A stretch of DNA of 64,000 nucleotides from Rhynchobatus australiae (Eukaryota): positions 26,479,134 through 26,543,133 of the forward strand of contig JAUZTB010000074.1 in the NCBI GenBank assembly GCA_034780895.1, written 5' to 3'. Position numbers and translations under genes: made by a program. The notes beneath the pieces are model-generated. The model had not been told where the DNA came from and did not search any database. It saw only the letters and a list, made by a program, of their open reading frames with translations. Numbering within the stretch: position 1 is the first letter of the stretch; each line of letters starts with the position of its first letter. Shown here in pieces: positions 54,274-62,665 of the stretch.

Positions 54274-54775
54274 TAGAACCATAGACCACTACAGCACAGT
54301 AAACAGGCCATTCGGCCCTTCTAGTCTATTCCACAAGTCCCATTTACCTGCACCCAGTCCATAACCCTCCAGACCTCTCCCATCCATGGATCTATCCAAT
54401 TTATTCTTATAACTCAAGAGTGAGCCCGCATATGACTACATCAGATGGCAGCCCGTTCCACACTCCCACCACTCTCTGAGTGAAGAAGTTCCCCCTAATG
54501 TTCCCCCTANNNNNNNNNNNNNNNNNNNNNNNNNNNNNNNNNNNNNNNNNNNNNNNNNNNNNNNNNNNNNNNNNNNNNNNNNNNNNNNNNNNNNNNNNNN
54601 NNNNNNNNNCCCCCCCCCCCCACACCCCCCCCACAGTCTCCCACTACCTCTCCTGTGACTCAGGAAGTTAACAAAATCTCTGCCAGGGCCCCAGCAATCT
54701 CCTCCCTTGCTTCCCACAACATGTTAGGGTGCACTTGGTCAGGCCCTTGGGATTCATCCACCTTTATGTGCCTCA
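54274..54775 (-). mobile_element. CR1-like LINE fragments (gapped)
   Basis: RGNIRGNFFTQRVVGVWNGLP; tail tagaaccatagaccactacagcac. Confidence 0.8.
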
Positions 54776-54818
54776 AGACTGATCTGCTTACTGAATGTCG
54801 ATCACTCTTTTATTCTAG

Positions 54819-54911
54819 GGCCCACAAAGAGGAACCTGCTGCAGGTGAAACAACAAACTACAAGGCCACACACGACAGCCTATCCAATGAGAGCTGCTCC
54901 CCCTCCTCCAG
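54819..54911 (+). CDS. MYO1E: Myosin IE exon 25 (TH2)
   Basis: tctag|GG CCC...CCA G|gtaact, 93 nt; (R)PTKRNLLQVKQQTTRPHTTAYPMRAAPPPP. Confidence 0.93.
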
Positions 54912-56615
54912 GTAACTCGGCAAAGGCTCCAACGTCAGTCTGGACCTGTCAGCGTTGGAGACCCGAGGAATCAACTGGGGGGAAGAAAGGACAGGGGGCC
55001 AGGTTTGGCCTGGTAGCCCCAGTCATTGAAGAGCAGACCCTCGGGGTTGAGGATGACTTACTCAGATTTCAGATCAGTTTGTTGTCACATACACCAGGGC
55101 GCAATGAAATTCCTTGCTCGCGAGAAGCTCACAGTGTAATGGCTGTAGGTGGCAATAATACACACAACAGTGGGTGCAGTGACGAGCACAAAACAACAGA
55201 AGGGGCAGAGGTGGTGCAGCAGAACAAAATACTAAAGTGGCAATGACGGAGTAACCGGAAGAGGTAGAATTAAGCATCTGAGAATGTGGCAGAGTCACCG
55301 GGAAGAGGGTGTGGAAGTACGTGGACCCATCCCCGCGCAGCTGATGAGCGACAGGAGCTGCTGCCTGACCTGCTTAGTTTTTCCAGCATTTTCCATTTTC
55401 TGTTTCTTATATAACTGAGTTGGCTCAGTGTTTTCTTATCCTACAAGACCAGCCTGTCAGGCAGGTCCCACCACCTTACCGTTAACAACTCGTTACGCAG
55501 ACCTAGAATCTGAAGGCACTGATAACTGTCCCCATGCTCTTTGCTCTGCACACCCCTTCCGCCAGCTTCTCTCCTACTGAGGCATAACTTGCGCCCCTCT
55601 CCCAGTTCCGATGGAGGGTTGACTGTTTCCCCCTCCACAGGCACTGCCTGACCTGCTGAGTGTTTCCAGCGTTCTCTCTTTTTGTTTCGGATGTCCAGTG
55701 TCCGCATTTTTTTTTTGATTTTCAAGGCAGGTATTGGTCTGTTCACCTCAGCATTAGTCATGAGTGAACCTTAATCCTGAGGGTTGCTGGGGATCTTGGA
55801 CGTGCCACAGAGAAGGTCAATTCTGGCCCACACGGGATGTCCAATCACAACCGCCTCCAGTAGTGTATGCTCTAGAGTGACCAGTGCTATCACACCATAC
55901 CATTTCTTCCATGGGCCTGGAGCTCTGGGTTTTTGCTGTACCTCTGCACCCATCCCAATGGCATCGGTTGACTCAAAACAACCTTGGAATCAAGCTCCTC
56001 GCTGGATAAACTGGCTGAGATTGATTGAAAACCTACTGAAGCTTAATGTGGGGGAAGAACAGCTCTGGGTGTTGAGTGGTAGTGACAAAAACATAATTGC
56101 TCTTAGTGATAGGAGTGAAGTCGACAGGAGTGAAGACCGGGGTTTAGAGTGGCAGTGTGACGGACTGTGGAACCAAGATGAATATCTCAGTCCAAGTGAC
56201 TGGGTTCCAGAGTCTAACTTATCCGTCGAGGCCACGTGTGGAGAGGGGAAGGGTGAATGTCTGAAGTTGACGACTTTCCGTCAGCACCGGAAGGTGTTCG
56301 ATACAAGCAGGTGCTGAAGAATGACAGAGCCCTGGAAAACGGAGTGGGCCAGAGTGTCGACGTGATACAGTGAAGTGTTTTGTGTGATCCTGGCCCGTGT
56401 CATTGCTGTATGTCGATTCATAGGGTCATACAGCATGACATGCCGACCAGGATGTCTATCTGAGTTAGTCCCGTTTGCCCCATATCCCTCTAAACCTCTC
56501 CTACCCATGTACCTGTCTCTTAAATGTTGTTTGTCTCAAAGGGATACAGAGTGACAGCCACTTCAGCTTTTCAAACATGACGATAACTGGTTCCTCTCAT
56601 TGTTTTTTGTTCAAG

Positions 56616-56823
56616 GTCTCCACCAGAATGGAGTCCTCAAGGGTCCACAGAACAATTCCCAACGGCCATCCGTAAACAACCGGGCCAACCAGCGAGCCCC
56701 CCACCAGAGCGCGGCCACCGGTCGACCAGCTTTGCCAAGACCCGGCACCCAGCTCCGTGACAGGAATGCCCGGGTCCAAAACAATCTGGATTTCTTGAAA
56801 GTGCCGGAGCAGGGAGCTGCAGG
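56616..56823 (+). CDS. MYO1E: Myosin IE exon 26 (TH2)
   Basis: tcaag|GT CTC...GCA GG|gtaagt, 208 nt; (G)LHQNGVLKGPQNNSQRP...LDFLKVPEQGAA(G). Confidence 0.94.
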
Positions 56824-57329
56824 GTAAGTGTTAGCTGTGGGGGTTCTTGGCTGCTGCCACCACGTTCCATCTCCGGGGAAATAGGCAGCATCTGATGACG
56901 TCCCACTTCACTGTTGGATGTATTGGGATCCCATTTAGGGGACAGACTCAGGCTGGTTTAGAAACCTCTGCACACCAAGTGCACTGTCATGTGCTCTTCC
57001 ATCCTGCAGTATAACAGGCTCTCTGCGAATGGTGGCAGGCTCTCTTGATACTGTCTTCTGTCAGCAGCAGTATCTTTGTGTAACTGTCCTGTCCAATGAG
57101 GTGTACCGTGTCCCGTTATCTCTGCTTGGAGGTACAGGACACCTTGTGCTTTGAGATCTGTGATACAGATGAGAGCTTTTCCAACGTGGAAATGTGACAG
57201 GTGTTATAAAACTTAGCAAAGCACTGACTCACTTCCCGGTCCACACCCTAAAATTCTCTTGTGAAGGAAATGAGCACCAGTGAACAATGTCAGCATTCAT
57301 ACAACCAGGCCTACTCCTGGTGTCAGGGA

Positions 57330-57840
57330 CATCGAAAAGCACAGTACAGGCCCTTCAGCCCACAATGTTGTGCTGACGTTTTATCCTGCTCTAAGATCTA
57401 TCTAACCCTTCCCTCACACATAGCCCTCCATTTCTCTGTCATTCATGTATCTATCTGTCAAGTCACCTCTCATCCTCCTTCTCTCTGAAGGGAAAAGCCC
57501 TAACTCACTCAACCTATCCTCATAAGACACGCTCTCCAATCCAGTCAGCCTCCCGGTATATCTCCTCTGTACCCTCTCTAAAGCTTCCATATCCTTCCTA
57601 TAATGAGGAGACCAGAACTGAACACATTACTCCAAGTGTAGTCTAACCAGAGTTCTATGGAGCTGCAACATCACCTCGTGGCTCTTGAACTCAATACCCC
57701 ANNNNNNNNNNNNNNNNNNNNNNNNNNNNNNNNNNNNNNNNNNNNNNNNNNNNNNNNNGGCAACATCCTGGTAAATCTCCTCTGCACCCTCTCTAAAGCT
57801 TCCACATCCTTCCTATAGTGAGGCGACCAGAACTGGACAC
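57330..57840 (-). mobile_element. CR1-like LINE 3' fragments
   Basis: Reverse complement of the QFWSPHYRKDVEALERVQRRFTRML-coding segment, present twice around a gap. Confidence 0.85.
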
Positions 57841-58221
57841 TCCGGCACAGACTCCATCCAGCCTTTTCCCCTCATCCTGTCCTGCAAACTCTTAAACTGA
57901 CTTTTACCAATGTCACCAGCAGCAAGTTCTGAGCATCAGTGCAGACCAATAATCTACTTCACTGGGTCCCGTAACATGACACTGTCCAGCCGGCCTCCCC
58001 TCTTAACCCCCAGGGATCTGGACTGCACCAGCCACAAATGAAGGAAATGCTCCCCCTGCTGGTGTGCTCCATTGATACCTCTCACAGACTGAAAAGTGGT
58101 GAAAATATGCTCAAGATATTGTAAAAAAACTGTGTTAAGTTAATCCAATTATTAATAATGATGAGAAATACTTTAACAGAAGGAATATTTGTCTCGTCTG
58201 TTTTGCTGTATTAACTTACAG

Positions 58222-58230
58222 CAATTACAA
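58222..58230 (+). CDS. MYO1E: Candidate 9-nt alternative microexon in intron 26
   Basis: ttttgctgtattaacttacag|CAATTACAA|gtgagtgcatg; symmetric phase 2, adds N-Y-K with no stop. Confidence 0.4.
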
Positions 58231-58270
58231 GTGAGTGCATGTGTGTATTAAAATCTCTTCCTTTTTATAG

Positions 58271-58306
58271 CAACCGTACTGGAATGACACGACCAAGTGA
58301 AGGAAA
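58271..58306 (+). CDS. MYO1E: Candidate 36-nt alternative exon in intron 26
   Basis: tctcttcctttttatag|CAACCGTACTGGAATGACACGACCAAGTGAAGGAAA|gtgagt; phase 2/2, adds NRTGMTRPSEGK with no stop. Confidence 0.6.
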
Positions 58307-60195
58307 GTGAGTCAAGAACGATACTGTTGGGTGGTGGCTTGGGTGCTGTGCTTCGAGAATAAATTCTGCTGATTTGTTTTAAATTAATATTTTAAACTAT
58401 GCAATAGGTTTGGTAGTTGATCATTGGTTGCATTTCTAATGGTGACATAGATTTTGATGCTAACCGAACCAATCATGGGAATGAGAGAGTGATATTTCTG
58501 ATGTTAATGAAATACTAATATCATTAAAAGCAATCATCATCAATATGATCACTTTAAGCAGTTATAAAGGAGATGGAGAATGTGTGAACTTAGTTTACAG
58601 TACCTTTCCGGTTCTGTCTAGGCTCCTTTTAAAAGAAAACATGAAGTTTTAAACAGGAACATGTTGCAGGATTGGCGGATATACATCATTATACACAATC
58701 AATGCACTTCCAAGGACTGAAATCTAGTCGTAAACCTGAGGGGTGCTGATGAGGGGCTGGGAGAACCAGCTTCTCCTGAGAGGCCTGTTGATCAAAGGAC
58801 TCAGGTGCACGATATTTAACAGCAAAAGGCCTGGGGGAAAATGAGATATCATTTTCTTTTAACCAGGGGGATTGTTCTCTGTCAGCAAAGAGGATAGTGG
58901 AAGCATGTTCGATCAATGTTAAACAAAAATGGATATCCCCTTGACCGCTCAGGATTTGGAGGAAATCTGTAGGAACTGGGACTAATTAGATGGCTCTGTA
59001 ACAGGACGTTTGTCTGGCCTGTTTTGCTGTGGTATTGCAATATTTATTTGTGTGTGTGTGTGAGATGCATCAGACATGGAAGGCCAAAGGTCTCTGTGTT
59101 GGATGGTTCTGCGTAAACGCCATTCGCAGTCAGGCTTCCTGTGAAGCTGAGGGTTAAGGTGGATGGGAACAGACTGTATACTTTTACTTTGCATGGGATG
59201 GAGGGCACCATTTCTCCCGCAGAACTCTAGGTCAGTCACTAGATTGCACTGTGCTTGGGTGCACTTGTTGACAAAATAGAACGTAGACGATGTTGAGGAA
59301 ACGGATGTGNNNNNNNNNNNNNNNNNNNNNNNNNNNNNNNNNNNNNNNNNNNNNNNNNNNNNNNNNNNNNNNNNNNNNNNNNNNNNNNNNNNNNNNNNNN
59401 NNNNNNNNNGTAGACGATGTTGAGGAAACGGATGTGGATGTGTGAGGAAAACCCTGTATCAATTTGCAGAAAAAACACTGATTAATGTAAGTTGTAAACA
59501 AGTCAGTAGAACTTCCATTTACCAATTTAAGAAAAGTTAAGATGTCATGTTTAGAGACGACATTAACAATTCAACAGGAAAGTGTTGATGTTAGGAGTAA
59601 GAAAATGGAAGATTTTGGGAGGTTTAAATTAGGTGTCAGAGCAGGCTTGGGGGAGGATTTGAAGGGAAGAGCACAAGTTCCAGATGTCCTTCCTTGAAGG
59701 AAGGATTCGGGGAGTGGTGAGACAAGGACGAGCTGGGGTTGAGATCAGTCAAAAACAATACAGTGTCCAAAGACACCTTTATTCAAAGGTTTCATGCTTT
59801 GCGGCTTGTTTATGTTGGAGAGTCGCTTTCTGTGTAGATTGTTGCTGATTATACAATGGAGTGTCCCAGCCATTTGCCACAATCGTATGCAGCCCAGTAA
59901 ACAATACCGCCAAACTCAAACAGTTCTGTTCACAGCTTGCTGGCTCACTCTAAATTCAGGTCACCTCCACCACGTTGCTCCGAGGTGTGCCTCACGGATG
60001 GATAATTCCAGGGGTTGGAAATTATTGGGCATGTTATGTCGATCTTATAGGGGGCATGGGTGGACAAAGAGCTTGGACACTCTGCATCTGTAATTTTTCC
60101 TTCCCTAGTCTTTCCCTTGTTAGAAGTAGGAAACTAGAAGTGGAGGCTCTGGGGGAGAGCAGCTGTCTCACTACTTCAGTTTTGTTTTGCTCTAG

Positions 60196-60365
60196 GGCGC
60201 ACAGGCAAATGTCAAGTCGGCCACCCCCGGCAGGAGGTCGACCAAAGCCCCAGCCCAAGCCTAAGCCTCAGGTACCACAGTGCAAAGCGCTCTATGCGTA
60301 CGATGCTCAGGACACAGATGAACTTAGCTTTAATGCTGATGACGTTATAGAAATTGTAAAAGAAG
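60196..60365 (+). CDS. MYO1E: Myosin IE exon 27 (end of TH2, start of SH3)
   Basis: tctag|G GCG...GAA G|gtaagt, 170 nt; [56 protein letters not shown]. Confidence 0.97.
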
Positions 60366-61651
60366 GTAAGTCTCTAAACACATTCTCCTGACTTGCGGTT
60401 TAACTATTGTTGCAAAGTTTTAAAAAACACTCTGCTCCCTTTTTAAGTGACCACTATCTGTAGACTGTACCCTGGTGCCAGCCCCAGGAATAATGATTGG
60501 CAGTCCTTAACCAACTCTAAAAATGAGCATTATTTAAATTTCCAATAAAGGAACACAGCTGGCCAGTGTCTTTGTAACTTATTTAGCGTGTTTTTCTACT
60601 GTTTCTGCTGATTTCAGGTATGCTCCATATTTGGTCCAGTGGAGCAGTACTTAACAATATCTTCACTTGTCTCAATTTTAACCTCATGAAATGTCTTCTA
60701 AATACCACGTGTACAATTGGCATTGATACTCCTCAAAGACCGCAAAAGAAATTTGTCATCATAGTTGTGTGTAGTTTGGTGAAAGTGTTATTGTGGGCTA
60801 TTACACAGAGGGTGAAGCCAAGCTGTCCTTCAACATGATGCAGATTGATGAAGAAAGAACTCGCAATTTCCTCTGTCGTGCCCAAAGTACTTTAAAGGTG
60901 ATTAATCAGCAAATGTAGTTAGTTATATAAAAAAGCAGCTGCCAAATGTGCAAGATCTGACAGATGTGAGATGTCACAAATCAACCAATATTTTAATAGC
61001 CTTAATTGAAGGATAGGTTTTGGCCGGGACACCAGGTAACCCTTCCTGCTGGTGTTGTGAGAAGATATCCGTCCGAGAGGACCAATGAAACATGACTCAA
61101 ACATCGCACCTAAAAGTAAACCTTATTTGCTTTCGGGGATGGGAGACGGGTAGCAATGGAAATACCTCACGCTTCTTGTTCTTTTTACACCATGGATCCC
61201 CTTTCAACACGTAACCTTGGGTGCAGTACTGAGAGAGTACTGCACTGTCTTTCTAATGCTATGTTAGAAATAGGCTCCACCTATTCTCCAAGGGAAATGT
61301 AGACCGTTCCCTGGCATTAAAGAACAGGACAGTCCCTGTAACCTGGCTAACATTTATCGCTCACCTAATCACACAGAGACGCTTACTAGTTATCTAATAG
61401 GGGAAAGTTTGTGGGATCTTGCTGTGCAAGTTGGTTGGTCACTGAAGCGCATGCTTCAGTGCAGATACAATGATAGTACTGGGAAAGCTCAGCCCTACAG
61501 AGTGCAACTTTGTGCAGCAGGTAACAACTCTCTCTTGTCGGGGTCAAATGAATCACCACTGGAGCCCAGGAGAACTGTAACATAAGGGGATAAGCACCGA
61601 GCTCGAATACACACACACACACTGACTTCACGACAGACCTGTTCTCATTGA

Positions 61652-61813
<162 letters not shown>

Positions 61814-62665
61814 AACTGCTATTATTAGAATATATGGACAAACCAAAAGGAAGCACGGCACAGACAGCAATCCTACAGTGATAAGGACACACTGTATATG
61901 TTTGTAAATGCATGAATCTGCACAAACCTGTAGTCTGGAGCTACATCCGTGATGGACTGAAGGAACTGTAATTTATTGTATTTATACTTTTTCCCTCTAC
62001 AAGATGTATAGCTGGTAGTTTAGAAGAATGTTGCATAACATACCTGTGTAAAGGATTCTTATTTTTGCTGTTTTTCATCAAATATAGCTTTACTCTTTAT
62101 AATTTTAGTAATCTGCTATTTCTTCAGAAATACTAGTGATGGAATCTAAAACTTCCCTTTTGAAGTAAGTTCTGAGTTGGGACAGACACTGAACTTTGCT
62201 GCTGACTCATGTACGAGGAATGTTTGCTGCACTTAATGCCCAATGGAATGGGATGTTCTGTTTTGAAAATAATTTAAAACTATCAAACTTTCTACCAGGG
62301 TCCACGGGAGTACTGTAGACTGCATTGGTGACCAGTCTACCCAGTACTGTAGAAATGAAGCAAATTGCATTTTAGTGCCTTATTGCATAAATGTGGCTGG
62401 TCCATATTAAATGCTGTATTTGATGTAAAGTTGAGGTTAGAGAACTATTTCACTTTCCCCTTTAACTGTATTAGATACTGGATTCTACAACTTGTGTCTA
62501 AATGCATAGTCTACTTTTTTGTCCCCCCTACTAGAACCCAGAAACATTGTCAGATCTTTACTGTGCATTTTCTCTTTGGCCAATGTGTTGAATTTTATAA
62601 ATTTATATGAACAAACTCTTAATGTAGGACTGATTAAATAAACAATTCAATATATCCAAAAAAGT
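61814..62665 (+). other. MYO1E: MYO1E 3' UTR (end approximate)
   Basis: AT-rich, repeat-free sequence from the stop codon to the poly(A) signal. Confidence 0.7.
62633..62642 (+). terminator. Polyadenylation signal (overlapping ATTAAA and AATAAA)
   Basis: attaaataaa; GT/T-rich tract downstream at about 62727-62750. Confidence 0.65.

Follow-up and report, generated by a model that had tools for sequence, protein, structure and literature searches.

The DNA analysed here (the window) is a stretch of 64,000 nt that holds most of a MYO1E gene of ray type, a long-tailed class I myosin, on its plus strand between about 2.1 and 61.8 kb, as mapped by an exon scan, a list of open reading frames and tblastn. 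MYO1E is a motor of podocytes and endocytosis and is usually treated as one protein of 1108 residues. Its exons are numbered here by what we take to be the human numbering (26 and 27). Exon 26 matches ray and skate proteins named unconventional myosin-Ie, the closest of those tested being that of Pristis pectinata (64 of 68 residues). The intron between exons 26 and 27 contains a short optional exon, and this region is single-copy and unique in its own genome. The features of the region are collected in Table 1.

Table 1. Features in and around the intron between MYO1E exons 26 and 27, in positions of the window.
Feature	Position	Strand	Basis and remarks
MYO1E constitutive exon 26, upstream of the cassette	56616..56823	+	Ends in phase 2 (...VPEQGAAG); tblastn map; contig joints 54911>56616 and 56823>58271
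Predicted RNA hairpin	58185-58244	+	Fold calculation; perfect 8-bp core 58203-58210/58217-58224, 6-nt loop
TGC of the 9-nt candidate, in SRRM3/4-type position between U-rich tract and AG	58204-58206	+	Sequence; paired in the predicted hairpin stem
Branch-point-like TATTAAC, putative	58209-58215	+	6/7 match to consensus; the hairpin loop contains A58214, which lies 8 nt upstream of the 9-nt candidate and 57 nt upstream of the 36-nt exon
Candidate 9-nt microexon CAATTACAA, unconfirmed	58222-58230	+	Would add NYK; CAG before, GTGAGT after; splice-site look only
40-nt spacer, the acceptor region of the 36-nt exon	58231-58270	+	Branch-like TATTAAA with A58251, pyrimidine tract, TAG; acceptor 58270 used in contigs
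TGCATG, RBFOX consensus motif	58236-58241	+	35-30 nt ahead of the 36-nt exon, at +6 to +11 from the 9-nt donor
Optional 36-nt exon; inserts NRTGMTRPSEGK in the TH2 tail	58271-58306	+	TAG before, GTGAGT after; contig joints; 41 +12 proteins
GU-rich element (GGTGGTGG, TGGGTG), ESRP-like position	58325-58353	+	19-47 nt past the end of the 36-nt exon
MYO1E exon 27, coding for the basic end of TH2 and the first part of SH3	60196..60365	+	tblastn map; contig joints

Several observations concern the wider setting. High-copy repeat fragments, with thousand-fold contig depth, lie in both introns flanking exon 26 (57338-57840 and about 55100-55700). In contigs of a close relative (organism A), exon 25 lacks 3 nt at window position 54849 in four of four runs. 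A third long-tailed myosin-I-like locus in the same genome (G000:C86:2722949-2723107, minus strand; L003, L005) is 69% identical to exon 27 and may be an additional paralogue that cartilaginous fish have retained, its flanks being mostly N. A further locus, G000:C70:32339694, presumably MYO1F-like, is 60% identical to exon 27. No candidate short exon turned up in the introns of the paralogues (L005, L006), a result that is uninformative because 7444 and 3267 of 9901 bases are N.

A first-pass annotation of this DNA had placed two candidate exons in the intron, one of 9 nt and one of 36 nt, and its coordinates, the 40-nt spacer between the pieces, the TGCATG within it and the frameshift on reading through were all reproduced when the sequence was re-checked. 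Read as one exon, the two pieces and their spacer amount to 85 nt (85 mod 3 = 1), with an in-frame stop directly after NYK. Either candidate alone keeps the phase-2 frame between exons 26 and 27, adding NYK or NRTGMTRPSEGK, as would a +45 form. Since +9, +36 and +45 are all in frame, the joint form could be excluded by geometry only. The original observation was one of sequence, and the exon status of both pieces was an interpretation; for the 36-nt piece alone it is now confirmed.

The 36-nt exon is a real optional exon, spliced in at GT-AG on both sides. Contigs from all four runs of one study on a close relative (region 54700-62000) carry the joints 56823>58271 and 58306>60196, both GT..AG; these runs are presumably RNA, their contigs are spliced, and the record gives no tissue. 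Within each run a single contig spans both joints with exactly 36 nt between exons 26 and 27, and this one +36 contig fully explains the depth of the bins concerned. The exon was also covered in the comparison of 57880-58880, with zero base differences and with loose ends that are exon 26 and exon 27 sequence; the zero differences in organism A are not significant alone (p 0.13). The skipped 26-27 junction was unseen in the four runs, and the evidence for skipping comes from predicted proteins.

For these, 287 proteins were fetched, 253 of which could be scored at the exon 26/27 junction, 34 without an anchor being left out. No insert is present in 210 of the 253 scorable MYO1E proteins, while 41 carry +12 residues, one +10 and one -3. 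The +10 belongs to a fish-like protein fragment (P0164), and one swallow model (P0248) has 3 residues missing at this junction. The 52 cartilaginous-fish proteins comprise 32 with +12 and 20 with +0, with no other length (the batoid-cluster count leaves out seven members), and of the 22 shark and ray species represented, 21 (8 ray or skate, 13 shark) have a named predicted +12 isoform, 18 of them together with the +0 form. Beyond sharks and rays, +12 proteins are predicted in lungfish, coelacanth and two turtles, and both +0 and +12 forms in lungfish, coelacanth and Emydura. Identity of the insert to that of the window is 7-12 of 12 residues in sharks and rays (12/12 in Pristis and Narcine); coelacanth and lungfish match it at 4/12 positions and turtles, whose inserts share SNG(G/I)I with coelacanth, at 1-2 of 12. 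No +12 insert was found in any bird or mammal record examined, the large bird and mammal clusters being sampled at 15 members each; together with its presence in turtles, this suggests that the exon was lost.

The exon is already present in RefSeq gene models. Predicted MYO1E X1/X2 pairs (for example XP_051896308.1, XP_069767360.1, XP_064421935.1) have the same insert at the same junction as the window. The RefSeq pairs of sharks, rays, coelacanth, lungfish and turtles are predictions that come without tissue or regulation, and they include no 3-residue form. Literature searches returned no paper text describing the MYO1E 36-nt exon, only rows of zebrafish supplementary tables.

The insert enters a Pro-rich linker between the human-equivalent residues G1027 and V1028, directly before R1029/R1030, the first residues of a basic cluster in TH2 that is described as required for SH3P2 binding (PMC4987290). 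From this position, the 12 residues would change how the partners of TH2/SH3 are spaced or how tightly they bind, with no folded domain touched. An optional exon that runs from sharks to turtles offers a natural test of how the surface of the TH2 tail is tuned, of modest interest given that the exon already stands in gene models, and its apparent loss on the way to birds and mammals offers a natural test of exon loss.

The 9-nt candidate is the sole frame-keeping candidate of 3-27 nt on the plus strand of the window at its own scores in a simple splice-site matrix, for which the splice-site frequencies are those we assume and the thresholds were set post hoc at the candidate's own scores. The minus strand, scanned as a control, gave 1 candidate, or 0 if a TGC was required, and a looser pattern (YAG, 3n bases, GTRAGT) gave 20 matches on the plus and 4 on the minus strand of the window. 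The candidate falls within the 3-27 nt of SRRM3/4 microexons and has a UGC between pyrimidine tract and AG, the architecture reported for SRRM3/4 targets (10.1101/2024.09.17.613571). The succession of UGC, GTGAGT donor and TGCATG behind it is the textbook one, which speaks for an exon. Its best branch-like heptamer lies at -8, with weaker ones at -46 (TTAAC), -64 and -67. In the close relative's DNA, the block that includes the candidate differs at 1 of 182 nt, compared with 20 of 727 in the surrounding sequence (Poisson p 0.04). This is accounted for by the conservation reported for the flanks of any frame-keeping alternative micro-exon, which extends over >75 bp (PMC4317164). The idea that the 9-nt piece is a duplicate of the 36-nt exon was rejected, as an alignment that gave p 0.024 against plain shuffles gave 0.16 with the splice signals fixed.

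Use of the 9-nt piece left no trace in the material searched. Proteins with +3 or +15 numbered 0 of 52 in cartilaginous fish and 0 of 253 among all scorable MYO1E proteins, the absence of +15 being uninformative without any +3. The short protein fragments, 13 of 29 of them scorable, showed no +3 form, and the 9-nt joint was found in the contigs of 0 of 4 runs (one study, tissues unrecorded). A zebrafish table with dedicated microexon calling lists one event only, of 33 nt, among the IDs running from myo1b to myo3a, which cover myo1ea; supplements on retina microexons contain no myo1e exon, and literature searches gave no 9-nt MYO1E event, although microexon tables beyond those searched could contain one. 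Contigs drop minor isoforms, and gene predictors can miss 9-nt exons. For these reasons, and because tissues were unrecorded and the exon may have been lost in zebrafish, these negatives are weak with regard to a rare neural microexon. We consider it improbable that the 9-nt exon is used. One of the two proposed exons is thus real and optional, on the evidence of contigs and proteins, while use of the other finds no support in any +3 protein or contig joint. The switch between three tail states (0, +3 or +12 residues) that had been built on the pair is accordingly left without support.

As to the control of the 36-nt exon, the GU-rich element behind it is the first candidate. The stretch 58313-58362 contains 7 TGG/GGT triplets, a number reached by 1.9% of 12080 windows; the form of the ESRP motif applied to the element is the one we assume. 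For Esrp-enhanced exons, GU-rich motifs are reported to fall within 250 nt of the start of the downstream intron (PMC5703972), a range that includes the element. The second candidate is TGCATG, a hexamer that occurs 28 times on the transcribed (+) strand of the window and 9 times on the other and is expected here by chance in about 1.6% of 40-nt stretches. The copy at 58236 is one of 3 of the 28 plus-strand copies that lie in TG-rich sequence, it is unchanged in the DNA of one very close relative, and 3 of 37 GTRAGT sites have a TGCATG within 40 nt. On sequence, this UGCAUG in the flanking intron would make the exon a potential RBFOX target.

A zebrafish exon supplied the only regulator data that the searches found on the same question. 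Rows of published tables (PMC5703972; PMC12626424) list a 33-nt exon of myo1ea, DreEX0048646, whose PSI falls, in the supplements of the former, from 66-73 in wild type to 36-41 in esrp1/2 double mutants, and which is classed there as Esrp-enhanced. A 3-nt alternative-acceptor event is listed at the same coordinates, and the cluster of the exon in that source includes no other species (PMC5703972). A published table also gives a fall of 33 PSI points on loss of srrm3/4 (the lowest of three comparisons) for this exon, which is not classed as neural; ESRP is therefore not the only candidate regulator. DreEX0048646 is likely the orthologue of the ray 36-nt exon, judging by gene, size and the +10 of fragment P0164. 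Both are short, frame-keeping optional exons of the same gene, and a +10 fragment fits 33 minus 3 nt. The zebrafish exon differs in having 33 rather than 36 nt and an alternative acceptor.

On this evidence, the locus is probably a two-state cassette, in which the 36-nt MYO1E exon is likely enhanced by ESRP in epithelia and the 9-nt look-alike is likely part of a conserved upstream control region and not an exon. Its inclusion is seen with both junctions, and the +0 and +12 isoforms are predicted across jawed vertebrates. The exon would be spliced in or, as predicted, skipped, giving a TH2 tail with +12 or 0 residues; ESRP would act on the downstream GU-rich element to promote epithelial inclusion. 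The TGCATG, the hairpin and the branch-like heptamers may tune the 36-nt acceptor, where RBFOX bound upstream would repress.

A rather unlikely variant keeps the single cassette and changes its main control, from ESRP to RBFOX repression through the upstream TGCATG or to SRRM3/4 acting through its TGC; under RBFOX repression, the exon would be skipped in muscle and neurons. The motif stands 10-15 nt before the branch candidate, and upstream-intron repression by RBFOX has been described for egl-15 exon 5B (PMC3585155), while the fall of the zebrafish exon in srrm3/4 mutants would suit the SRRM3/4 form. Yet the surroundings of the motif are TG-rich, one very close relative is the only place where it was seen conserved, its TGC lies upstream of the branch candidate and not between tract and AG, and the zebrafish exon's table does not class it as neural.

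A second reading, which we also hold to be unlikely, concerns the predicted hairpin, and would make the 9-nt look-alike the 3' arm of a branch-point hairpin that serves the 36-nt exon, with A58214 displayed in the loop and AGs hidden in the stem. The whole 9-nt candidate lies in the 3' arm, its acceptor and donor included, with TGCATG at the hairpin base, and pairing with the U/C-rich 5' arm would be what creates false CAG and GTGAG signals. The fold has a calculated energy of -16.6 kcal/mol (z -2.98), and 0 of 200 shuffles were as good. Its perfect 8-bp stem carries TATTAAC across the loop, matched against what we take to be the branch-point consensus, and the 3' arm takes in each of the three AGs (58220, 58230 and 58234) that separate A58214 from the acceptor in use. 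Distant branch points in the loops of 8-9-bp hairpins have a described precedent in OGDH (PMC7969005). Against this, the fold ranks no higher than about the top 2% among 2416 51-nt windows, the window has 13 listed perfect hairpins of at least 8 bp (two counted twice), and the 36-nt exon has a branch candidate at canonical position, A58251 at -20. The hairpin may create look-alike exon signals or, alternatively, hold a real microexon closed until some factor unfolds it. The branch-point-hairpin reading is compatible with the two-state cassette, which it refines and does not replace.

The other role for the hairpin leads to a less likely account still, an extension of the model in the first-pass annotation, that the 9-nt piece is a rare, probably neural microexon shut in the hairpin, opened by SRRM3/4 and RBFOX and unjoinable to the 36-nt exon, so that the tail would take 0, +3 or +12 residues. 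The piece's standing as sole plus-strand candidate at its own score in the window, the UGC between tract and AG, the kept frame free of stops, the GTGAGT donor and the block unchanged in the close relative all suit it. RBFOX at the hairpin base would, we infer, compete with pairing, and a downstream TGCATG is the motif reported as enriched behind alternative micro-exons (PMC4317164). The 21 nt from the donor to the branch-like A are also under the steric limit given below. The protein counts and the contigs, with bin depths that the +36 contig fully explains, argue against it, as do the one 33-nt event of the zebrafish table and the retina supplements. So do the best branch-like sequence, a mere 8 nt before the AG with the weaker TTAAC at -46 as the next, and human MYO1E mRNA, which is listed as decreasing in neuronal differentiation. 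If the 9-nt exon were real, the locus would be a very compact case of mutual exclusion between a microexon and a mini-exon under two tissue programmes. The fullest form of the idea, a three-state switch of sharks and rays in which a hairpin-locked 9-nt microexon, opened by SRRM3/4 through the UGC and by RBFOX through the base of the stem, excludes an epithelial, ESRP-driven 36-nt exon, would set neural and epithelial splicing programmes in competition over 85 bases, and is very unlikely.

Steric exclusion is a published mechanism, with a limit of <50 nt between donor and branch point (PMC5740500). The sole plausible branch point in the spacer, the predicted A58251, is 21 nt from the 9-nt donor, below that limit. 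Were the 9-nt piece an exon, steric hindrance would therefore keep it from being included together with the 36-nt exon; to that conditional extent, the mutual exclusion that had been proposed is sound. As a mutually exclusive pair, the locus has the steric geometry and fails on the key feature, use of both exons. Inclusion of each exon alone was not found, the 9-nt form being absent from 253 proteins and four runs (material of low sensitivity for a rare microexon), and the similar length and sequence that are usual, though not obligatory, in such pairs are lacking too (9 against 36 nt, alignment p 0.16).

The proposal of an undescribed regulatory system was too strong, as steric exclusion and RBFOX-steered exon pairs are both described in published work (PMC5740500; PMC3585155; PMC7969005), and the model, even if true, would be a variant of known systems and not a new one. 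Sterically exclusive exons, with 57 human clusters reported (PMC5740500) and OGDH 4a/4b as an example (PMC7969005), share the donor-branch distance of <50 nt, and the branch-point-displaying hairpin of OGDH resembles the one predicted here (PMC7969005). In the known exclusive exons both members are shown to be used and are usually similar, whereas here a single member is shown to be used, the two measure 9 and 36 nt and no homology survives the control; unlike such pairs, the MYO1E locus also commonly skips both in predicted proteins. Pairs steered by RBFOX, namely egl-15 5A/5B and unc-32 7a/7b in C. elegans and FGFR2 with ESRP1/2, have UGCAUG near the alternative exons, as here, and an FGFR2-type co-action of RBFOX and ESRP is a possible likeness at MYO1E (PMC3585155). 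The egl-15, unc-32 and FGFR2 cases were tested by mutation and in mutants, whereas at MYO1E the motif is a candidate site. With SRRM3/4 neural microexons, the 9-nt candidate shares size, UGC position and a strong intronic donor (10.1101/2024.09.17.613571); it differs from them in that no inclusion was found, its acceptor is paired in the predicted stem and its best branch-like site is too close. The 36-nt exon, for its part, is a multiple of three, free of stops and conserved, with a skipped form among predicted proteins, and in behaviour as in features it is an ordinary conserved frame-keeping cassette exon.
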